Assembly: GCA_964536865.1 (NCBI GenBank)
Contig: CAZHYN010000001.1
Span: 150,001-182,000, forward strand
DNA: 32,000 bases
DNA from: an uncultured Planctomycetia bacterium
GTDB lineage: Bacteria > Omnitrophota > Gorgyraeia > Duberdicusellales > 4484-171
Direction: 5' to 3'
Part shown: piece after piece, positions 13,501 through 27,027 of the stretch
Position numbering within the stretch: position 1 is the first letter of the stretch
How the letters are laid out: each line of letters begins with the position of its first letter
Translations under genes and position numbers: made by a program
Notes under the pieces: generated by a model
What the model was told of the DNA's origin: nothing
Databases searched by the model: none
What the model saw: the letters and a program-made list of their open reading frames with translations, nothing else

Positions 13501-13890
13501 ATGGAAATTATTAAGAAACCAAAAGCACCTTTTGAGAAATATCTTGGGATAAAGATAATTGAAACCAAAGATGGCTATGCTAAAGTAAAGATGCCTTATC
13601 AGGAGGAATTTACTAATCCCCAAGGCTTAATCCATGGAGGAGCTATTGTATCTTTAGCGGATACTGCTATGGCAGTGGCTATTTTCTCTAAATATTTGCA
13701 TAGTTCTTTTTATACTGTAAAGTTAGAGATAAAATTCAGGTCACCTTCTAAGAGAGGAGAAATATTTGCCGAAGCAAATATAGTAAATAAGAGAGGGAAG
13801 TTTATTTTTGGCAGGGTAGAGGTAAAAGATAAGGAGGGTAAGCTATTAGCGCAAGTTTCAACTACTTTTTATCTTATTAATAAGGAGTAA
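13501..13890 (+). CDS. PaaI/4HBT-type hotdog-fold acyl-CoA thioesterase
   Basis: The motif NPQGLIHGGAIVSLADTAMAVA and a size of about 130 aa are typical of PaaI-family thioesterases. Confidence 0.8.
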   Translation: MEIIKKPKAPFEKYLGIKIIETKDGYAKVKMPYQEEFTNPQGLIHGGAIVSLADTAMAVAIFSKYLHSSFYTVKLEIKFRSPSKRGEIFAEANIVNKRGKFIFGRVEVKDKEGKLLAQVSTTFYLINKE

Positions 13891-13916
13891 GATAGATATT
13901 AGAAATTATATCTAAA

Positions 13917-14319
13917 GATAACCAGGGCAAAACCATCCCCGATACCAAAACCGCAAAACGCTCCTACCCTCAAGATTCAGCCCAAACTGATATCCAGCTT
14001 ACTGCCTATAACCTCGCCTATAAATACTTAAAAGGCGAAGAACCAGCCTCTTTCTGCTTTGATGTAATGGTCCGCACCAAACAACCCAAAGTCCAAACCC
14101 TACAATCTCCACCCACAACTCAAGCCGAGCTTACTCACTTTCTTAAACTCATTGGTTCAATCGCAAAAGCAATTAAAACCGGTATCTTCCCTCTCCGTCC
14201 GAACCTTTAGTGGAGGAGGATACCCTTGCGAGAACCAACAGGTGTGTTTTTGGTGTGGGTATAGGTTTATCCTAAGCCGAACTTGTTCTGGTTTAGGGGA
14301 AGTGTGTAAGAGGTGGTGA
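13917..14319 (+). pseudogene. C-terminal remnant of a PD-(D/E)XK (Cas4/AddB-like) nuclease, 5'-truncated and frameshifted
   Basis: My own translation gives ...IPDTKTAKRS...DIQLTAYNLAYKYL...ELTHFLKLIGSIAKAIKTGIFPLRPNL* with the stop at 14208. The +1 frame from 14200 continues as ...GGGYPCENQQVCFWCGYRFILSRTCS...*. This matches the DxK(T)xK, QLxxY and C-terminal Cys-cluster layout of Cas4-type nucleases. There is no N-terminal half and no start codon. One 60-nt line here is about 52% GC and strongly C-rich. Confidence 0.55.
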
Positions 14320-14368
14320 ATTCTCTTTTGCCCTTCCAGAGGCCCTGTAAAAGGGCAAGGTAAAGCAA

Positions 14369-14860
14369 ATGATAACAGATGTATTAGAATACAGTTTAAA
14401 CAAGGAATTAGAAGCCATACAGAGATACTCAAATATATTGTGTCCACTATGTAAGGGAAGCCCTAAGATACATAAAAAATAAGAAGTTACTTCCTTCTAT
14501 AAGAGAGAAGGCCTATAATCTCTATAAAGTAAAAACAAAGAACGAATTCCTGAGTAAATTAAATACCTTCAAAAAAGAATACCAGGATAAAGAGCCTAAA
14601 TTTTTTAATATTTTACTTAAAAACATAGACAAAACTTTAACTTTTTATAAATACCCTGCTAAATTTCATTCCTTAATAAAAAGCACCAATTTAATAGAGA
14701 GATTCTTAAAAGATTAGAACAACTAACCAGGATAGAGGGCAGGATTTAGAGAGAAAAAAGTGTCAATAGGGTATTTATTTTTTAGTTGAAAGGTTTAATA
14801 TGGGAATAGGTGGTTATAGCCTTTATGAATTTACATACTTTTGTTGACAGAACCAATGTA
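14369..14860 (+). mobile_element. Degraded IS256-family (Mutator-like) transposase remnant, in several frames with internal deletion
   Basis: My own translation of 14369-14482 gives MITDVLEY..., comparable to the IS256 MTDVLYIKV catalytic-D region. Translation of 14484-14717 gives KLLPSIREKAYNLYKVKTKNEFLSKLNTFKKEYQDKEPKFF...YKYPAKFHSLIKSTNLIERFLKD*, which resembles the conserved C-terminal block of IS256 Tnp ending KSTNLIERLN. Shifted frames after 14707 give ...KRLEQLTRIEGRI*, then FREKK... The end coordinate is approximate. Confidence 0.6.
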
Positions 14861-14869
14861 AGCGTTTTC

Positions 14870-14898
14870 TTGACATTCCCCTTTTTATATGTTATATA
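14870..14898 (+). promoter_or_regulatory. Strong sigma70-type promoter upstream of cvpA, NIF3, dnaG and rpoD
   Basis: The promoter reads TTGACA (14870-14875), 17 nt spacer, TATATA (14893-14898), about 24 nt before the cvpA ATG. A second TTGACA lies at 14844-14849. Confidence 0.6.
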
Positions 14899-14921
14899 CT
14901 AATTAATCCTTTGGTTGAGTA

Positions 14922-15500
14922 ATGAAAATAATAAAAAGCTTCCTTTTTATAGATTTACTGAGTATATTTCTTATACTAAGGATAATTTATATTGCCTTAA
15001 GAGAAGGGTTAATTTCTGAGGGAATAAAAGTCATAGGAAGTTGGTGTGCACTCTTTTTTTCACTTCAGTACTACCCCTTACTTTTAGGTGGTTTTAAGAG
15101 CGAAGTCTTAAAGAGAGAATATTTAAATTTTTTCTCGTTCTTTCTCATATTTTTTGGGGTTTTGGCCCTTTTTTCTCTTCTCAGAAAGATGATAACTACT
15201 TTTGTTAAGAGAAAGAATAAAACTCTGATAGAGAATGCTATCTCTTTTCTACTGGGAGGTGTAAGAGCAGGAATCTTACTAATTGCTTTTGTTTTTTCCT
15301 TTTCACTTCTTTCCCCTAAGAAAAATATTTTTAGAGGAAGTTTATCTTTGAGAGTATTCTATAGGTTTGTTCCTAAAATCTATCTTTACTCTTTTAGGGT
15401 ATATAAGAAGTTATATCCTCAAGCAAAGTTAAATAAGGAGGTAAGAAGGAGCTATGAAGTTAAAGGAGATTTATCAAGAAGTAGTGAAGAAAGGAATTGA
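14922..15500 (+). CDS. cvpA: CvpA-family integral membrane protein
   Basis: It is a small four-TM protein whose N-terminus (FIDLLSIFLILRIIYIALREGLISE) resembles CvpA. Its 3' end overlaps the next gene by 47 nt. Confidence 0.6.
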   Translation: MKIIKSFLFIDLLSIFLILRIIYIALREGLISEGIKVIGSWCALFFSLQYYPLLLGGFKSEVLKREYLNFFSFFLIFFGVLALFSLLRKMITTFVKRKNKTLIENAISFLLGGVRAGILLIAFVFSFSLLSPKKNIFRGSLSLRVFYRFVPKIYLYSFRVYKKLYPQAKLNKEVRRSYEVKGDLSRSSEERN

Positions 15501-21598: not shown

Positions 21599-23030
21599 AG
21601 AGTTAGAGATAGTCATAGGATTGGAAGTACATGTTCAGTTAGATACGAGATCAAAGATTTTCTGCAGCTGCTCTACTGGTTTCGGCGCTCTTCCTAATAC
21701 TAATATCTGTCCGGTATGTTGTGGATATCCTGGAGTTCTCCCTGTGCTGAATAAGAAAGCTTTGTTTTTAGCGTTAAGAGTTTGCTTAGCTTTAAATTGC
21801 AAAATAAATAGAAGGATATATTTTGAAAGGAAAAATTATTTCTATCCAGATTTACCGAAGAATTATCAGATTTCTCAGTATGCCCTTCCCCTTGGTGAGG
21901 ATGGGATTCTTTTGATTTCTTCAGGGAAAGAGATAAATATAAAGAGGGTACACTTAGAGGAAGATGCAGGAAAGCTCATCCACAGAAAAGACTACTCATT
22001 AGTTGATTTCAATCGTGCTGGTATCCCTCTTTTGGAGATAGTAACCTATCCAGATATAAATACTCCCCAAGAAGCATTTGATTACCTAACTCAACTTAAA
22101 CTTACTCTTCAGTATATAGGAGCATCTACTTGCGATATGGAGAAGGGATATCTACGTTGCGATGCTAATATATCTCTAAGAGAGAAAGGAGAAAATAATT
22201 TAGGCACAAAGGTCGAGCTTAAAAATATGAATACGTTTAGAGGAGTAAGAGATGCTTTAGAGTATGAAGTAAAGCGCCAGACAAAAATCATAGAGAAAGG
22301 AGAGAAAATTTATCAAGAGACAAGATTATGGGATCCCTCCCAAGGTAAGACTTTCTCTATGCGAAGGAAAGAGGAGGCACATGACTATAGATATTTTCCT
22401 GAGCCTGATTTAGTTGATTTTAAGATAGAGGAAGAGTGGATAGAGAGAGAACGTTCTTTAATAGGAGAACTTCCCCTGACGAGAAAGAAAAGAATACTTA
22501 AGGATTATCAACTCCAAGAGGAAGAAGTGGATGTAATTGTATCCTCTAGGTGGTTAGCCGATTTTTTCGAGAAAGCCTGTAGTTACTTTAAGGATTATAA
22601 GAAGATTGCTAGCTGGTTGATAGGCCCCTTCTTGGAAATTTTCTATACTGAAGGGAGTGATTGGAGTAAAATAAAAATCACCCCTAAGAGCTTCTCTAAA
22701 GTTGTGGAGTATTTCTCTACAGGAAAATTGAATAACTTAGGAGCAAAAAAAGTTCTTGCTAAGATCTTTACCAATAATGCCGACGTAGATAAAGTTATAG
22801 AGGAAGAAGGGTTAGCTCAGGTTTCTGGTGAGGAAGAGTTAATTAAGTTTGTAGAGGAAGCCATTGTTGCCAATCCCAATCCGGTAAATGACTACCTTAG
22901 AGGAAAACAGCAAGCAGTGATGTTTCTGGTGGGATGGGTAATGAAAAAAAGTAGAGGTAAAGCAAATCCCAAAGTAGTCAGAGAAATGTTAGAGAAGAAA
23001 TTGAGAGAGAAAGGAGGAGGTAATGATTAA
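21591..23030 (+). CDS. gatB: Asp/Glu-tRNA amidotransferase subunit B
   Basis: It has the GatB N-terminus IGLEVHVQL...KIFC, the motifs HLEEDAGK and [13 protein letters not shown], and a C-terminal GatB_Yqey-like tail. Confidence 0.95.
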
Positions 23031-24264
23031 GAGATTTTTTATTTTTCTACTGATAGGGTTTCTCTGCTTCTCTTGGAATTTGGGTTTCTCTTCTGAGAAA
23101 GAGACAAAAAAAGAGACAAAAAAAGATGCATTGTATAGAGAATTGGATCTATTAGGAGAAGCACTCTCTATCGTGAGCAAAAAGTATGTAGAGGAGAAGT
23201 CCTTAAAGGATCTAATCTATGGAGCAATAGAGGGGTTAGCATCATCCCTAGATTCTTATAGTCAATTTTTAAAGCCTGAAGATTATAAAGAGCTTCTTGT
23301 AGAGACAGAAGGAAAGTTTGGAGGGTTAGGTATAGAAATAACTATAAAAGACGGTTTACTTACTGTTGTCTCTCCCCTGGAAGATACACCTGCATTTAAA
23401 GCAGGATTGAGGGCAGGAGATATTATTGTAAAGATAAATGGGGAGATAACTAAAGGGATTACCTTAAATGAAGCAGTAAAAAAATTAAGAGGTCAACCAG
23501 GTACTCAGGTGAAGTTAACTATTCTTAAAGAGAAAACAAAACAGATTCAGGAGGTGACTATTACTCGGGATATAATAAAGATTCAGGATGTAAAGAGGGC
23601 ACTTATCCTTGAAGATGGTATAGCGTACCTAAAACTTAGTGAGTTTCGGGAAGATACTGCTAAAGAGTTGGCTCAAGCTTTAAGGGATTTGGAAAGGAAA
23701 GGGATGAAAGCTTTAATTTTAGATTTGAGGAATAACCCAGGAGGTCTCCTTGTTTCTGCAGTAGAAGTGGCAAGTAGATTTTTGCCTAAGGATAAGGTTA
23801 TCGTTTCTACCAAGTCCCGTAACGCTGAAACTTTAGTCTATAAGTCACTTTCTTCTTCACCAAAATATTTAGATATGCCTATGGTAGTTCTGATAAATAG
23901 AGGAAGTGCCTCGGGAAGTGAAATAGTAGCTGCTGCCTTGAGAGAAAACAAGAGAGCTGTCCTTCTAGGAGAGAAGAGTTTCGGTAAGGCCAGTGTACAG
24001 AGCGTATTACCTCTTAGTGATGGTTCTGCTTTAAGAATTACTACAGCAAAGTACTATACCCCTGAAGGGAAAAGTATTCATCAAAATGGAGTTGAGCCAG
24101 ATATTGTAGTTACTAAAGAAGTAAGTGATCAGCCTGAGCAAGAGAATGTTTTTGAAAGGATTAAAGAAGAGAGAAGTAGAGAGTTTGATTATAAGAAAGA
24201 TTATCAACTTTTAAGAGCAATAGATTTAGTGAAAGGGCTCTTGGTACTTTCTCAAAAAAAATAA
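23023..24264 (+). CDS. S41 family carboxy-terminal processing protease
   Basis: It has a signal peptide, a PDZ segment (GGLGIEI...GDIIVKING), and S41 catalytic motifs (RNNPGG, GSASGSEI, KSFGKASVQ). Confidence 0.9.
   Translation: MIKRFFIFLLIGFLCFSWNLGFSSEKETKKETKKDALYRELDLLGEALSIVSKKYVEEKSLKDLIYGAIEGLASSLDSYSQFLKPEDYKELLVETEGKFGGLGIEITIKDGLLTVVSPLEDTPAFKAGLRAGDIIVKINGEITKGITLNEAVKKLRGQPGTQVKLTILKEKTKQIQEVTITRDIIKIQDVKRALILEDGIAYLKLSEFREDTAKELAQALRDLERKGMKALILDLRNNPGGLLVSAVEVASRFLPKDKVIVSTKSRNAETLVYKSLSSSPKYLDMPMVVLINRGSASGSEIVAAALRENKRAVLLGEKSFGKASVQSVLPLSDGSALRITTAKYYTPEGKSIHQNGVEPDIVVTKEVSDQPEQENVFERIKEERSREFDYKKDYQLLRAIDLVKGLLVLSQKK
23101..23124 (+). repeat. Perfect 12-nt tandem repeat x2 (GAGACAAAAAAA) inside the protease N-terminus
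   Basis: Read directly from the sequence. It encodes ETKK-ETKK just after the signal peptide, and each unit contains an A7 run. Confidence 0.9.
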
Positions 24265-24266
24265 GA

Positions 24267-25256
24267 ATGTATGCTTTAGGGATAGAGACCTCTTGTGATG
24301 AAACTTCCTGTGCAGTTGTAAGGAACAGAGAAGTTCTTACTAATTTTACTGTTTCCTCTCTAAGGTATCATAGAAAATATGGAGGTATAGTTCCAGAAAT
24401 TGCCACCCGTAATCATCTAAAATTCATAGATAAAGTCTTTCTTCTAGCAATTAGGAAGGCAAAGGTAGATCTTAAAGATATAAAAGTTATAGGAGTAACT
24501 TATAAACCGGGTCTTTTAGGATCTCTTCTAGTAGGAGTAAATTTTGCCAAAGCTCTCAGCTTAGCTTTAGATAAGCCATTTTTGGGGATAAATCATCTTC
24601 ATGCTCATCTCTTTTCTCCTTTTCTGAATAATCAAATACCATTTCCTCTACCTTTTGTAGGACTGGTGGCTAGTGGAGGACACACAGAAATTTTTTTAGT
24701 AAAAGATTTTTCCCAGATAAAACTGTTAGGTAGTACCACCGATGATGCTTGCGGAGAGGTTTTTGATAAGGTAGCAAGAGCTTTTGGGTTAGGATATCCA
24801 GGAGGTGTCTACATAGATAAAGTTTACTCCCCTGATTTCAGAGAGAGTTTCTCCTTTAGATGTGGAAGAAAAGGGTTCAATTTCAGTTTTAGTGGAGTGA
24901 AGACAGCAGTAATCTATAAAAAAAATGAACTAGAGAAGAAACAAAAATTAGACAGAGAGACAAAGATTAAAATTCTTTCTTCTTTTCAGGAGAGTGTAGT
25001 AAAAACAATAGTAGAAGGAATCGAAGAAGCAGCAACAAAGTTAGGAATTAGGAATATTGTGTGTGGTGGAGGAGTTGTAGCTAACCGTCGACTTAGGGAG
25101 TTATTGAGAAATTTAGAAAAGAAGGGATTCAAAATATTCTTACCCTCTTTAGCTTATACCACTGATAATGCCGCTATGGTTGCAGGAATTGCCTTTTACT
25201 TGTATAATAGAAAAAGAGAGACAAGTAATTTTAAATTAGAGGCAGAAGCAAATTAA
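24267..25256 (+). CDS. tsaD: tRNA N6-adenosine threonylcarbamoyltransferase
   Basis: The motifs GIETSCDETS, INHLHAH, SGGHTE and GGGVVAN, typical of TsaD/Kae1, are present. Confidence 0.95.
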   Translation: MYALGIETSCDETSCAVVRNREVLTNFTVSSLRYHRKYGGIVPEIATRNHLKFIDKVFLLAIRKAKVDLKDIKVIGVTYKPGLLGSLLVGVNFAKALSLALDKPFLGINHLHAHLFSPFLNNQIPFPLPFVGLVASGGHTEIFLVKDFSQIKLLGSTTDDACGEVFDKVARAFGLGYPGGVYIDKVYSPDFRESFSFRCGRKGFNFSFSGVKTAVIYKKNELEKKQKLDRETKIKILSSFQESVVKTIVEGIEEAATKLGIRNIVCGGGVVANRRLRELLRNLEKKGFKIFLPSLAYTTDNAAMVAGIAFYLYNRKRETSNFKLEAEAN

Positions 25257-25257
25257 A

Positions 25258-25686
25258 ATGTTGAATAACCTTCAAATAATATGCCGTTTAATCTTGGCTT
25301 TCTTCTTAGGAAGCGTTATTGGATTGGAGAGAGAGAAGAAAGGAAGGAGCGCAGGTCTTCGTACCCATATTCTTGTCTGTACTTCTTCTTGTTTAATTAT
25401 GCTTGTTTCTCTCTACATGTATGAGCTTTTTAGAGGAGAGGTTCCTTTAGATCCTGCACGGATAGCTGCGGGTGTGGTAACCGGTATCGGATTTTTAGGA
25501 GCAGGTACGATTATTCGTAGTACCAAAGCAGTAAGAGGACTTACTAGTGCTGCTAGTGTGTGGGTAAGTGCAGCTATTGGGTTGGCGGTAGGGTGTGGGT
25601 TTTATGTAGGGGCAATTTTAACTACGGGCTTAGCTTTCTTAACTTTAGCTTTTCTTAAGATTGTTGAAAGTAGGTGGGAGAAGTAA
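25258..25686 (+). CDS. MgtC/SapB family membrane protein (short form)
   Basis: It has the motif GLEREKKGRSAGLRTHILV and four or five TM segments. Confidence 0.85.
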   Translation: MLNNLQIICRLILAFFLGSVIGLEREKKGRSAGLRTHILVCTSSCLIMLVSLYMYELFRGEVPLDPARIAAGVVTGIGFLGAGTIIRSTKAVRGLTSAASVWVSAAIGLAVGCGFYVGAILTTGLAFLTLAFLKIVESRWEK

Positions 25687-25708
25687 GTTTAAGAGGAGGT
25701 GGAGATAG

Positions 25709-26200
25709 ATGGCTAGAAGAAGAGATGAGGAGAAAGTTTTAGATGTAAATGCTACGATGCAAGGAAGCCTGGTGTTCTCTGATCCTGTAAATTTAAGGAT
25801 AAATGGGAGATTCGAGGGAAATCTTAAAACAAAAGGTAACTTGATCATTGGAGAGAGAGCAACTGTGTTTGCAGAGATTGAAGGAGAAAATATTATCATT
25901 TCTGGATTAGTAAGAGGGAAGATAAAATCTACTCAAATAGTGAGCCTTTCTTCAACTGCTAATGTCTACGCAGATATTCACACACCCAAAATATCTATTG
26001 AAGAAGGAGCAACTTTTAATGGTAAGTGTACAATGATAGGAGAAAAATTATCATTAGAGGAAGTAGCGGATTTCCTTTCTGTGGATAAGGAGAAAGTGAT
26101 AGAATGGGTAAATAACGGTAGGATACCTGCACAAAAGGAAGGTAATGGCTACGTATTTGATAGAAGAGAAGTAGAGTTATGGGTGGAACAGAATCGCTAG
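25709..26200 (+). CDS. Bactofilin-domain protein fused to a C-terminal excisionase/MerR-type HTH
   Basis: Residues about 15-108 show the bactofilin beta-helix periodicity (GNLKTKGNLIIGERATVFAEIEGENIIISGLVRGKI...IEEGATFNGKCTM). Residues about 113-160, LSLEEVADFLSVDKEKVIEWVNNGRIPAQKEGNGYVFDRREVELWV, match the HTH_17 pattern. A strong SD (GAGGAGG) precedes the start. Confidence 0.7.
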   Translation: MARRRDEEKVLDVNATMQGSLVFSDPVNLRINGRFEGNLKTKGNLIIGERATVFAEIEGENIIISGLVRGKIKSTQIVSLSSTANVYADIHTPKISIEEGATFNGKCTMIGEKLSLEEVADFLSVDKEKVIEWVNNGRIPAQKEGNGYVFDRREVELWVEQNR

Positions 26201-26496
26201 AGAAAAAGCTTCTTACTACTAGAGAAGTCTCTCAAATTTTAGGAATCTTAGAGAAGGAGGTGATAGAGTTAGCTCAGGAAGGTAAGCTTCCTTATTATAA
26301 GGTGGCAGGAGAATTTTTACGATTCAAAAAAGAAGATATTCTAAAGGTAAAGAAAGGAATTCAGAGAAAGTTTAAAGTAGAGCAGAGGTATCCTTCCTGG
26401 AGAGAAAAAGTTAGTGATTTTTTTTACTTCAATGACTTTTACATCATTTCTGGAGTGATAATTGTAATTCTTCTGTGGTTTATATTCAGGAGTTAA
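26179..26496 (+). CDS. Membrane-anchored excisionase-type HTH protein
   Basis: LLTTREVSQILGILEKEVIELAQEGKLPYYKVAGEFLRFKKEDILKV matches the HTH_17 pattern. A single C-terminal TM helix follows (FYIISGVIIVILLWFIF). It overlaps the previous gene by 22 nt. Confidence 0.6.
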   Translation: MGGTESLEKKLLTTREVSQILGILEKEVIELAQEGKLPYYKVAGEFLRFKKEDILKVKKGIQRKFKVEQRYPSWREKVSDFFYFNDFYIISGVIIVILLWFIFRS

Positions 26497-26598
26497 TCTA
26501 TACCCCCAGTAAGACCACCTTCAACTTAAGAAAATGATAACTACTCTAAAAATATTTTTCTTTCGTTTTCGGGAGGTTTATTTTAGATTAAGGATAGT

Positions 26599-27027
26599 TT
26601 AGAATTTTATTTTAAAGATATATTGAACTTTATCGTTACTAAATTCTGGTTTCCCTTTTATTTTAAAGAATTGTACTTTAGCTTTTTCTTTTACCCAGTT
26701 TTCTACTTCTTTAGCTTTGAAGTAAGGATAAAATATATCTACCCCTAACATCTTTTCCCACACTTTCCTTAGTCTTCTTCTTTCCTTATTTTTGTCTATA
26801 ACTTCTGCATAAGCAGGGGTATTTACCCAGGTTAGAAAGGAAGAACTTGAAATAGTTTCCTTATGAGTAGGTGAATCTCTTAGAGAGATTTCTTCTAAAG
26901 AAAATTTTTTCTTATCTACTATGGAAGGAGGTTCCTGAGAAAAGCTTCTTCCTCCGGATAGAAAAAACCACCCTATTACTGCTAAAAGGAGTAAAAATCC
27001 TATTCTTTTCTTTTTAAGTTTTCTCAT
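26599..27027 (-). CDS. Hypothetical secreted protein (142 aa)
   Basis: It has a signal-peptide-like N-terminus (MRKLKKKRIGFLLLLAVIGWFFLSG), an SD (GGGGGAG), and a C-terminal aromatic residue (FKIKF). I recognise no family. Confidence 0.5.
   Translation of the reverse strand: MRKLKKKRIGFLLLLAVIGWFFLSGGRSFSQEPPSIVDKKKFSLEEISLRDSPTHKETISSSSFLTWVNTPAYAEVIDKNKERRRLRKVWEKMLGVDIFYPYFKAKEVENWVKEKAKVQFFKIKGKPEFSNDKVQYIFKIKF

Follow-up and report, generated by a model that had tools for sequence, protein, structure and literature searches.

The uncultured phylum Omnitrophota has a conserved two-gene module in which a bactofilin fused to a C-terminal winged helix-turn-helix (wHTH) domain (protein A) is encoded beside a small wHTH protein that ends in a transmembrane helix (TMH; protein B). 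Because the DNA-reading residues of the two wHTH domains are replaced by acidic ones, sequence comparison suggests that the pair more likely links a polymer to the membrane than tethers DNA. The reading that we favour, to which we give a probability of about 0.4, is that B is a tail-anchored adaptor which would fix the polymer of A to the membrane by protein–protein contacts made by the wHTH domains. Bactofilins are scaffolds that reach their clients via short peptides or adaptor proteins and the membrane via an N-terminal peptide, and Omnitrophota are ultra-small bacteria with almost no experimental cell biology. A literature search combining bactofilin with helix-turn-helix, Omnitrophota or excisionase found no description of a bactofilin–HTH fusion, in agreement with an earlier sequence-only reading of this DNA, which knew of no characterised example.

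Gene order and transcription signals

Within the window (the whole 32 kb stretch of DNA that was analysed), the two genes stand at the end of a housekeeping cluster with the order gatCAB–ctp–tsaD–mgtC–A–B. The features of this region are as follows.

23023..24264, + strand: S41 C-terminal processing peptidase (Ctp), from Pfam
24267..25256, + strand: TsaD, from Pfam
25258..25686, + strand: MgtC-family membrane protein of 142 aa, directly upstream of A, from Pfam (MgtC, E 4.6e-42) and synteny
25694..25699, + strand: Shine-Dalgarno-like AGGAGG, 9 nt 5' of the ORF A start, from direct sequence reading
25709..26200, + strand: ORF A, bactofilin–wHTH fusion protein of 163 aa with an ATG start, from the ORF list and Pfam
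26179..26496, + strand: ORF B, tail-anchored wHTH protein of 105 aa, from the ORF list and Pfam
26559..26576, + strand: terminator-like hairpin followed by a T-run, 63 nt 3' of the B stop, from a pattern scan in which the number of such sites was not above chance

The mgtC stop is separated from the start of ORF A by only 22 nt, because of which A is probably co-transcribed with mgtC, and a pattern scan of this gap found no promoter-like site above chance. ORF A and ORF B overlap by 22 nt at the A stop. Promoter and terminator scans gave counts at or below the shuffled expectation; the hairpin is the probable, if weakly indicated, end of the operon, and the gene beyond it has a convergent orientation in the ORF list. 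A repeat search near the locus found no operator-like or centromere-like repeats above chance around the pair. MgtC may be a third partner of A and B, or merely a syntenic neighbour.

Conservation and pairing of the two genes

Homologs of ORF A number 473, and both domains are present in all 120 of those listed, at lengths of 162–174 aa; relatives of A occur in 519 species-level GTDB genomes, essentially all from Omnitrophota, with a near-constant length of 163 aa. The 164 homologs of ORF B are 93–118 aa long and every named one belongs to the same phylum. The survey of architectures and neighbourhoods that had been proposed with the sequence-only reading revealed consistent co-occurrence: B lies immediately downstream of A in 79 of 80 loci, with an overlap or a short gap between them (median 42 nt), and the pair is kept in divergent lineages where the flanking genes are unrelated (L081, L084, L087). 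Fusions with no adjoining B were seen at one locus (L056) and in one divergent branch (L086). The wider neighbourhood is also well preserved, with mgtC accompanying the pair at 71/80 loci (as well as in L087/L088), TsaD upstream in 72/80 and an S41 peptidase in 68/80, and one divergent fusion adjoins a ParA/MinD-like ATPase and an actin-like gene. Judged by mean pairwise identity, which is 0.53–0.61 for A and B against 0.57–0.61 for TsaD and Ctp, the pair is as constrained as housekeeping genes. A profile search with the wHTH alone for other fusion partners returned 24 matches and no new architectures, all 24 being fragments of A or B or small generic HTH_17 proteins.

An origin of the fusion by frameshift or misassembly is out, since the two domains are present in each of the 120 listed homologs, which come from independent assemblies, and relatives are found in 519 genomes; the fusion is genuine, with a length that stays constant over hundreds of assemblies made independently. 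An excisionase or recombination directionality factor, or a component of a mobile element or of a defence system (MADS), would be in keeping with the matches of both proteins to TIGR01764 'excise' (A 37.4 and B 33.3 bits, cutoff 28.8) and with sub-threshold matches to MADS1/mad1. With the MADS MAD1 model (NF047737), however, the scores are 37.3 and 36.6 bits where 80 are required, the likeness to PADLOC mad1 is that of a generic HTH, and the position after tsaD–mgtC is fixed across the phylum (80 loci). No integrase or mobile-element gene is present in the 32 kb window, and the 'excisionase' label of the sequence-only reading is generic. Synteny and conservation effectively refute these explanations, and the sub-threshold MADS1 and BldC scores also count against them; to all of them, artefact included, we attach almost no credence.

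Three outcomes had been named in advance as speaking against the sequence-only reading: a lack of HMM support for a bactofilin or HTH domain, a fusion created by frameshift or assembly, and homologs with no conserved pairing. Each was looked for and none was found.

Protein A, a bactofilin with a folded C-terminal domain

The description of ORF A as a complete bactofilin domain with a C-terminal HTH is borne out by Pfam, where both PF04519 and PF12728 score above their curated cutoffs, and by an AlphaFold2 (AF2) model of a beta-helix followed by a beta-alpha-alpha-beta-beta-alpha wHTH (pLDDT 90.1). Protein A can be divided into three parts.

25709..25735, + strand: A residues 1–9, conserved charged N-terminal tail, from column counts and pLDDT
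25736..26029, + strand: A residues 10–107, bactofilin beta-helix including F103, from Pfam, AF2, Foldseek and HMM alignment
26048..26197, + strand: A residues 114–163, acidic BldC/RacA-like winged HTH, from Pfam, AF2 and Foldseek

The match to Pfam Bactofilin (PF04519) spans residues 10–107 (E 2.8e-25, 88.8 bits, cutoff 27.9) and positions 2–97 of the 98 in the profile, and a profile of A in turn matches C. crescentus BacA at 1.3e-9 and T. thermophilus TtBac at 1.6e-8. The modelled beta-strands of this domain occupy residues 11–109 with pLDDT 93–98, and Foldseek places the beta-helix with TtBac 6RIB (TMt 0.76) and BacA 2N3D (TMt 0.73). In the HMM alignment F103 falls on BacA F130 and TtBac F105 of the C-terminal polymerisation interface, and this column holds F in 54 and L in 6 of 61 A sequences. 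With the same DUF583/PF04519 beta-helix core, the interface Phe and a small size, A resembles these canonical bactofilins, and is unlike them in having no BacA-type membrane-targeting sequence (MTS), a folded wHTH in place of the usual disordered C-terminal tail and the gene of an obligate tail-anchored partner beside it.

An N-terminal MTS is typical of bactofilins, although not universal. The N-terminal consensus of A from column counts is M-[AVIL]-[RK][RK][KR]-[ED][ED][ED]-K, with pLDDT < 50 over residues 1–7, and the BacA-type sequence (MFSK..K) is absent, as position 2 is never Phe and the basic residues are succeeded by three acidic ones; in BacA, F2 and K4/K7 are critical (PMC12448750). 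A weak direct membrane affinity of A is possible on sequence grounds, position 2 being hydrophobic and positions 3–5 basic.

The wHTH is rigidly attached to the bactofilin domain, by a linker of about 3–6 residues, and in the AF2 model only about 3 residues separate the last beta-strand (107–109) from the first wHTH strand (113–115), with pLDDT 87–92 across the junction. A linker of about 3 residues puts the modelled wHTH at the C-terminal polymerisation face, and A might for this reason form dimers or short oligomers and not filaments. The bactofilin domain would then merely dimerise or oligomerise A through N–N contacts while the wHTH caps the C-terminal interface. In that case A would be an oligomeric adaptor in solution, with B serving as its receptor at the membrane or as its antagonist. 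We consider this improbable, given that F103 shows the conservation found in bactofilins that polymerise and that the linkers of divergent fusions are, in the alignment, about 10 to 21 residues longer.

Protein B, a tail-anchored wHTH protein

ORF B had been read as overlapping ORF A and as joining the same type of HTH to a single C-terminal TMH, and this description holds: the HTH is supported by Pfam, and all 79 orthologs examined have a C-terminal hydrophobic helix (19-residue Kyte–Doolittle mean 1.63–3.06). The features of B are listed below.

26209..26370, + strand: B residues 11–64, BldC-like wHTH, from AF2, Foldseek, HMM alignment and column counts
26419..26442, + strand: B residues 81–88, near-invariant aromatic juxtamembrane motif F-x-Y-F-N-D-F-Y, from alignment
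26434..26490, + strand: B residues 86–104, C-terminal transmembrane helix (tail anchor), from hydrophobicity and AF2

AF2 models B as the wHTH and a long C-terminal helix (86–104, pLDDT up to 94), preceded only by a 14-residue helix (51–64) and a low-confidence linker. The linker is basic, with a mean charge of +4 over residues 57–84, and just 1–8 residues follow the TMH in the orthologs. Both the linker and the wHTH, a paralog of that in A, face the cytoplasm. Within the juxtamembrane motif F84, F87 and Y88 are invariant, and F81, Y83, N85 and D86 are conserved in at least 90%. The invariant residues of the wHTH itself are R15, E16, E25, R48 and F49, and its recognition helix is acidic.

Family and fold of the wHTH domains

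Both wHTH domains belong to HTH_17 (PF12728, cutoff 27), which matches A at residues 114–163 (E 3.9e-12, 46.7 bits) and B at residues 11–56 (E 4.3e-9, 36.9 bits). Foldseek matches both to BldC, RacA and Xis, with probability 1.00 for these and for RdfS, and has pSK1 Par, RacA and BldC as the best structural matches; CbpM and DafA are also among the structural matches. The domains differ from BldC by an rmsd of 1.3–1.8 Å at 24–28% identity (B 28%), and align with RacA 5I44 at TMt 0.62–0.69, a similarity at the level of fold only. Narrower families gave negative results: the BldC subfamily model NF033787 scored 15.1 bits for A and 20.5 for B, below its cutoff of 77, DUF4004 in Pfam had no match in either at E up to 1, the MerR and MerR_1 Pfam models had none in the proteins of the window, and a sequence search of the PDB with the A wHTH alone returned no significant match. 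Neither protein has a classical MerR dimerisation coiled coil or effector domain, A ending at its wHTH and B running into the linker and TMH. The topology is that of BldC from Streptomyces and other minimal MerR-like wHTHs, which also have no dimerisation or effector domain. Of the hydrophobic faces used by BldC for head-to-tail multimerisation B keeps both and A keeps one, but unlike BldC the wHTHs are here fused to a polymer (A) or a TM anchor (B).

DNA-contact residues and the question of tethering

The great majority of HTH_17 and MerR-like wHTHs bind DNA. To map contacts, the two domains were placed by HMM alignment on the BldC–DNA structure, with the contacts taken from PMC5859096. The base-reading Arg R30 of BldC is equivalent to RacA R19 and RicO R18, and Ala mutants lose DNA binding, as in RacA R19A and RicO R18A (PMC5859096 for the BldC contacts). 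This column contains E or D in 60 of 61 A sequences and D or E in 51 of 59 B sequences, and all divergent fusions have an acidic or neutral residue there; K or R occupies it in the nearest generic standalone HTH_17 proteins. Contacts T27, T29, K33, H46 and R47 of BldC, phosphate and minor-groove contacts included, are also lost in A and B. K26 and R48 are lost in A only, and B keeps R15 (invariant), K26 (51/59) and R48 (invariant). The A wing has no conserved basic residue, the mean net charge of the A wHTH is about -4.6 (about -3.5 in the A–B charge comparison), and the recognition helices of both proteins have a net charge of -2.0 each.

The sequence-only reading had proposed a DNA-tethering pair. 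Its polymer and membrane halves are plausible, but the idea that both HTHs are DNA binders fits poorly with the change from Arg to Glu/Asp. Because the base-reading Arg and other contacts are lost, the A wHTH is acidic and the generic neighbours carry K or R, tethering of DNA is possible but disfavoured, especially for A; some DNA binding may occur all the same, because B keeps several BldC contacts and acidic side chains are able to read cytosines. In full, the proposal is that both wHTHs bind DNA and that chromosome organisation or segregation is the task of the pair. B would pin a chromosomal locus or the nucleoid directly to the membrane, much like RocS and RicO with their amphipathic helix, and the A polymer would form an array of DNA-binding modules, comparable to what RacA/DivIVA or PadC/BacNOP achieve by way of adaptors. 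It draws on the fact that the best structural matches, RacA, pSK1 Par and BldC, are DNA-anchoring wHTHs, on the precedent of RacA, RocS and RicO for a MerR-like wHTH with a membrane anchor, on the residues and basic linker retained by B, on the housekeeping, phylum-wide context of the module and on the ParA/MinD-like ATPase and actin-like genes that neighbour one divergent fusion. Set against these are the Glu or Asp in both families at an Arg essential in BldC, RacA and RicO, the acidic A wHTH with its non-basic wing, the lack in B of a coiled-coil oligomerisation domain such as RacA, RocS and RicO possess, and the lack of repeated candidate sites near the locus, and we judge it a serious but unlikely alternative.

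B shares with RacA, RocS and RicO, the chromosome anchors of Firmicutes, an N-terminal MerR-like minimal wHTH, and they have a C-terminal element for direct or indirect membrane attachment, by an amphipathic helix or by DivIVA binding. B has a true TMH instead of an amphipathic helix, which is functionally analogous and not the same feature; the amphipathic helix of RocS is replaceable by a TM domain. There is no central coiled coil or DUF536 in B (no Pfam match), Asp/Glu sits where RacA has R19 and RicO has R18, and membership of B in these sequence families is not detectable.

A more far-reaching form of the idea, which we rate as rather unlikely, sees in the pair a minimal machine for organising chromosomes, nucleotide-independent and confined to Omnitrophota, in which the A polymer would carry regularly spaced atypical DNA-binding modules and B would pin DNA or polymer to the membrane. 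If this were true, the machine would do directly what PadC/ParB, RacA/DivIVA or RocS adaptors do elsewhere, and the acidic recognition helices would mean a new DNA-recognition mode for MerR-like wHTHs.

A further possibility is a sequestered transcription factor: one or both wHTHs would regulate transcription, and the polymer (A) or the membrane (B) would withhold them from DNA until a signal arrives, for example stress on the envelope or cleavage by the Ctp-type protease encoded nearby. The precedent is BacR (YhbD, DUF4004) of B. subtilis, an HTH protein encoded in one operon with the bactofilins BacE and BacF. These bind BacR physically and hold it at the membrane, with a predicted contact near the HTH, and vancomycin treatment makes them release it to the nucleoid (PMC13649987). 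The S41 protease, a conserved neighbour of the pair, also speaks for such a switch. BacR, however, is a separate, soluble, DNA-binding protein of another family that is brought to the membrane by bactofilins, whereas in the present pair the bactofilin itself carries one HTH, the second is inserted in the membrane, and both have lost the residues that read DNA. A factor meant to be released would hardly be expected to be covalently joined to a polymer, and neither an operator-like repeat nor an own promoter was found 5' of A. S41 proteases of the Ctp type are expected to be periplasmic, and B extends only 1–8 residues past its TMH. We regard a switch of this kind as a poor prospect.

A proposed membrane-anchored scaffold

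Under the favoured reading, A and B would constitute a co-expressed housekeeping two-component scaffold of Omnitrophota, associated with the membrane, in which the wHTH modules have been repurposed for protein–protein interaction and B is a membrane anchor or adaptor supplied in trans. CbpM provides a precedent for such non-DNA use, since its MerR-like fold, like that of DafA, serves in protein binding; CbpM regulates a DnaJ-like co-chaperone, is linked to neither cytoskeleton nor membrane, and has no shown sequence likeness to A or B. B would recruit A to the inner membrane and concentrate it there, a condition that favours the polymerisation of bactofilins: in BacA, membrane binding and polymerisation are cooperative, and a bitopic membrane client anchors MTS-less BacA in trans (PMC12448750). 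Contact between A and B could be wHTH–wHTH, or between the acidic A wHTH and the basic linker and wing of B; BacR with BacE/F offers a precedent for an HTH protein that touches bactofilins close to its HTH (PMC13649987). The charges are opposite, at about -3.5 for the A wHTH and about +4 for the cytoplasmic part of B, and their anticorrelation is weak (r = -0.31, not phylogenetically corrected). With TsaD/Ctp as the species-tree control, the mirror-tree partial correlation of A and B is 0.14–0.21, no higher than that of the MgtC control. The membrane-bound polymer may then position other factors, possibly envelope factors because ctp and mgtC are neighbours, and any DNA contact would be secondary and come from B, because it keeps R15, K26, R48 and a basic linker.

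In the BacNOP–PadC–ParB system a bactofilin polymer positions chromosome machinery through the adaptor PadC. In the BacA–PbpC system a bactofilin polymer is paired with a bitopic membrane protein, PbpC, the client that can anchor MTS-less BacA in trans. Unlike the partners in both systems, B is a tiny tail-anchored wHTH protein that carries neither an enzymatic nor a ParB-like domain, and A and B apparently each contain a copy of the interaction module.

Implications

A whole phylum keeps a bactofilin with a terminal folded wHTH and an obligate tail-anchored wHTH partner. Whether the wHTHs are protein–protein modules or bind DNA, synthetic genes expressed in E. coli would allow either outcome to be tested at little cost. 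If they bind DNA, A would be the first known case of a polymer of the cytoskeleton that carries DNA-binding modules of its own. If they are protein–protein modules, the pair would represent a clear case of the 'DNA-binding' family HTH_17 being repurposed, which would call for caution in automated annotation, where A and B are now both an 'excisionase family DNA binding protein', and a bactofilin polymer would here be attached to the membrane by a new means.

Architecture of the A–B gene pair

Two overlapping, co-directional genes form the module: A encodes a bactofilin fused to a C-terminal winged helix-turn-helix (wHTH) domain, and B a wHTH followed by a single C-terminal transmembrane (TM) helix. 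They and the surrounding features lie in the window as follows.

13890–14922: interval of ~1 kb between a thioesterase gene and cvpA, with no plus-strand ORF of at least 90 aa and no Rfam or tRNA match
14157–14447, minus: 96-aa GTG ORF, the sole ORF in that interval
25258–25686, plus: membrane protein of the MgtC family (142 aa), comprising just the TM domain
25709–26200, plus: A, 163 aa
26179–26496, plus: B, 105 aa, overlapping A by 22 nt
26599–27027, minus: small convergent ORF, 142 aa
27125–27505, minus: small convergent ORF, 126 aa
29080–29155, plus: tRNA-Met (CAT), the sole RNA gene that ARAGORN and Rfam detect in the window

An AGGAGG motif is read 9 nt 5' of the A start, which lies only 22 nt from the stop of the mgtC-family gene. 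Pfam identifies a complete Bactofilin domain in A (residues 10–107; 88.8 bits against a cutoff of 27.9; profile 2–97 of 98) and HTH_17 domains in A (residues 114–163; 46.7 bits, cutoff 27) and B (residues 11–56; 36.9 bits). Among NCBIfam models, TIGR01764 ('excise') is above cutoff for both proteins, and matches to BldC, MamR and MADS1 are far under theirs. AlphaFold2 models built with family alignments give A (pLDDT 90.1) beta-helix strands at 11–109, about three residues and then a beta-alpha-alpha-beta-beta-alpha winged HTH; B is modelled as a wHTH (11–64), a poorly ordered basic linker and a helix (74–84) running into a hydrophobic helix (86–104). Foldseek searches of the PDB match the N-domain of A to the T. 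thermophilus bactofilin filament (6RIB) and C. crescentus BacA (2N3D), and both wHTHs to BldC, RacA, mycobacteriophage Xis, pSK1 Par, RdfS and also CbpM. As ORF calls, Pfam, AlphaFold2 and Foldseek agree, the sequence-only reading was correct in every particular in placing these two ORFs and in describing a complete bactofilin domain joined to an HTH, with the same kind of HTH on a TM helix in B.

That reading also knew of no characterised bactofilin-HTH fusion, and no description of one was found in the literature searched. Database labels for the family are generic ('polymer-forming cytoskeletal protein', 'excisionase family DNA binding protein'), and membership tests place neither protein among BldC, BacR/DUF4004, classical MerR, RacA/RocS/RicO or MADS members.

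Distribution and gene neighbourhood

A search of ~5.8 billion proteins returned 473 homologs of A; among the matches listed, 120/120 carry both Pfam domains at 162–174 aa and 58–100% identity, and all source names are Candidatus Omnitrophica/Omnitrophota. This conserved architecture and length excludes the frameshift or assembly artefact that the earlier reading had considered. Scanning GTDB with a single genome for each species showed relatives in 519 genomes. HMMER, run exhaustively as a profile search over 1.84 billion 50%-identity representatives, left only 38 at E <= 1e-30, about two dozen being full-length fusions of 161–192 aa, and past these came ordinary bactofilins aligning through the beta-helix alone; the fusion is therefore one compact, essentially phylum-specific family. 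Divergent representatives retain both domains with a longer linker. Mean pairwise identity (0.53–0.61, against 0.57–0.61 for TsaD/Ctp in the same genomes) indicates about equally slow evolution.

The best 80 loci come from Omnitrophota MAGs, or from MAGs labelled 'uncultured Planctomycetia' or 'Methanosarcinales' with the same Omnitrophota-type synteny. Many loci from 'binchicken' MAGs (CAZ.../CAY...; L003–L007, L019, L027 and others) have this cluster under the title 'uncultured Planctomycetia/Planctomycetales bacterium', which probably comes from coarse, PVC-level labelling and not from the cluster being truly present in Planctomycetes. One 'Methanosarcinales archaeon' MAG holds two different A–B loci (L058, JAIWAR010000092.1; L077, JAIWAR010000033.1), both with full ctp-tsaD-mgtC-A-B synteny. 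These reflect mis-binning or, alternatively, Omnitrophota cells that live in physical association with a methanogen host and were binned along with it.

When window proteins were compared with these 80 loci by tblastn, B lay directly 3' of A in 79, a conserved pairing on which the sequence-only reading had made its idea depend. The median gap is 42 nt, and an overlap of 21–22 nt, as in the window, recurs at several loci. A C-terminal 19-residue segment is strongly hydrophobic in 79/79 B orthologs, and the B family comprises 164 members of 93–118 aa whose named sources are only Omnitrophota. Upstream of A are TsaD (72/80), MgtC (71/80, directly 5' of the pair) and an S41 peptidase (68/80). The pair is also kept where its flanks have changed: gatA-gatB-ctp-deacetylase-tsaD-A-B-SNase (L081), HINT-domain genes followed by A-B-greA (L084) and batD-TPR-mgtC-A-B-PDZ (L087). 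As mgtC again precedes the pair in L087 (4535–4972) and L088, where the other upstream genes differ, the MgtC-family protein could belong to the module as its third component and not just adjoin it.

There are two exceptions to the pairing. At L056 (3507–5179), the sole one of the 80 where B does not come next, the fusion ORF is called at 193 aa with an N-terminal extension, and unrelated 364-aa and 441-aa ORFs follow directly, stop and start overlapping. The other is the most divergent bactofilin-HTH_17 fusion, P0291 (188 aa, 28% identity to A; L086:290-5848, JGI 3300009777 Ga0105164_10002154), with a mechanosensitive-channel-like gene 3' and, 5', a Volactin-type actin homolog (PF25216, E 2e-91) and a ParA/MinD-like ATPase carrying a C-terminal AMPK1_CBM/CBM48 domain; three further upstream ORFs have no Pfam match. 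L086 may represent a distinct gene cluster, cytoskeletal or for partition, whose source is probably another lineage.

A long co-directional housekeeping block in the window (cvpA-NIF3-dnaG-rpoD-gatCAB-ctp-tsaD-mgtC-A-B) ends with the pair; next come a terminator-like hairpin and then a gene that is convergent. In the 142-aa and 126-aa convergent ORFs the N-termini are hydrophobic and could be signal peptides; neither ORF matches Pfam, and only in the closest relatives are they kept 3' of the pair (10/80 and 5/80 loci). An excisionase or defence role is effectively excluded by the housekeeping context, the absence of any integrase or mobile-element gene from the whole 32 kb window and the MADS1 score.

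DNA-contact residues of the wHTH domains

The B-family profile aligns to BldC without gaps, so their numbering coincides; A numbering is that of BldC plus 102, and the wing of A is shorter by one residue. In BldC–DNA structures base reading in the major groove falls to K26 and R30, and phosphate contact to T27, T29, K33 and W31; R30A and H46E abolish binding (PMC5859096). The equivalent arginine is R19 in RacA, and RacA R19A and RicO R18A both abolish DNA binding. Across 59 B and 61 A sequences, the R30 column is acidic in 51/59 B (D/E) and 60/61 A (E/D). T27 is D/E in all B; T29 is I in B and M/I/V/L in A; K33 is N/K/Q/E in B and N/E/D in A; H46 and R47 are F and L in B, variable and L in A. 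R48 is invariant R in B and hydrophobic in A, and K26 is kept in 51/59 B and variable in A. The A wHTH has a mean net charge of -4.6 (range -8 to -1) and the recognition helices of both families -2.0, with the B wHTH near +1 and its linker near +4.

Genuinely standalone HTH_17 proteins retrieved by a profile of the A/B modules, a rough baseline, have K or R in the R30 column (Q in one) and the usual S-T-x-Y-K/R helix, whereas divergent fusions have E/D/Q, with K in two. The acidic recognition helix is thus a specific, ancient and conserved property of the A/B modules. The conserved surface implies a ligand, and its acidity argues against a canonical major-groove mode, particularly for A. The earlier claim that both HTHs are DNA-binding modules therefore holds for the fold, both being HTH_17 members by HMM and structure, and fails at the contact residues: by residues they are probably not DNA binders. 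CbpM, with the same fold, binds protein instead of DNA.

These replacements weaken the DNA tether proposed in the sequence-only reading, as does the fact that B has no coiled coil; with the RacA/RocS/RicO precedent, the retention of R15, K26 and R48 in B and the ParA/actin neighbourhood of the L086 fusion in its favour, we consider it unlikely.

Two copies of a 20-nt direct repeat lie within A (25724–25743 and 26084–26103, 85% identity): the first reads DEEKVLD, in the N-terminal tail, and the second DKEKVIE, in the recognition helix. The charged tail thus resembles that helix, probably by chance in view of the purine-rich codon usage.

Bactofilin features and a possible adaptor mechanism

Its sequence, fold and interface residue make A a genuine bactofilin, but one without a typical membrane-targeting sequence (MTS). 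Its F103 is F in 54/61 sequences and corresponds in the alignment to BacA F130 and TtBac F105, where Arg substitution blocks polymerisation. With so short a beta-helix/wHTH junction in the model, A's C-terminal polymerisation interface is not necessarily free; that the beta-helix has a non-filamentous oligomerisation role seems to us rather improbable. The conserved N-terminal tail, M-[AVIL]-[RK][RK][KR]-[ED][ED][ED]-K, bears no resemblance to the MFSK..K MTS, in which F2 and K4/K7 are needed; the same study shows polymerisation and membrane binding to be mutually reinforcing, and the bitopic client PbpC able to provide an anchor in trans (PMC12448750).

We favour, at a probability of roughly 0.4, a reading in which B would be a tail-anchored adaptor at the inner membrane. 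Its basic cytoplasmic part and wHTH would bind the acidic wHTH (or beta-helix) of A, bringing the MTS-less bactofilin to the membrane, where it would oligomerise into a scaffold. The reading builds on the architecture, the obligate genetic linkage and the loss of DNA-reading residues, and on the lost MTS, the retained interface Phe and the opposite charges of A and B; from these we infer physical A–B contact, polymerisation and any downstream client. Outside its wHTH, B is most conserved in a juxtamembrane motif, F-x-Y-F-N-D-F-Y (residues 81–88; window 26419–26442), with three invariant columns and four of at least 90%; conservation this strict would be unusual if the motif only formed a belt at the membrane interface, and it may be a binding site.

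A precedent is B. subtilis BacR–BacE/F, in which the HTH protein contacts bactofilins at a site predicted to lie near the HTH and shuttles between membrane and nucleoid (PMC13649987). A BacR-like sequestered regulator is a reading to which we give little credence here; under the favoured adaptor model the polarity would be reversed in Omnitrophota, where the HTH protein would be the anchor. The pair is a real, phylum-wide and cleanly testable module, its unexpected twist being what looks like a repurposed wHTH.
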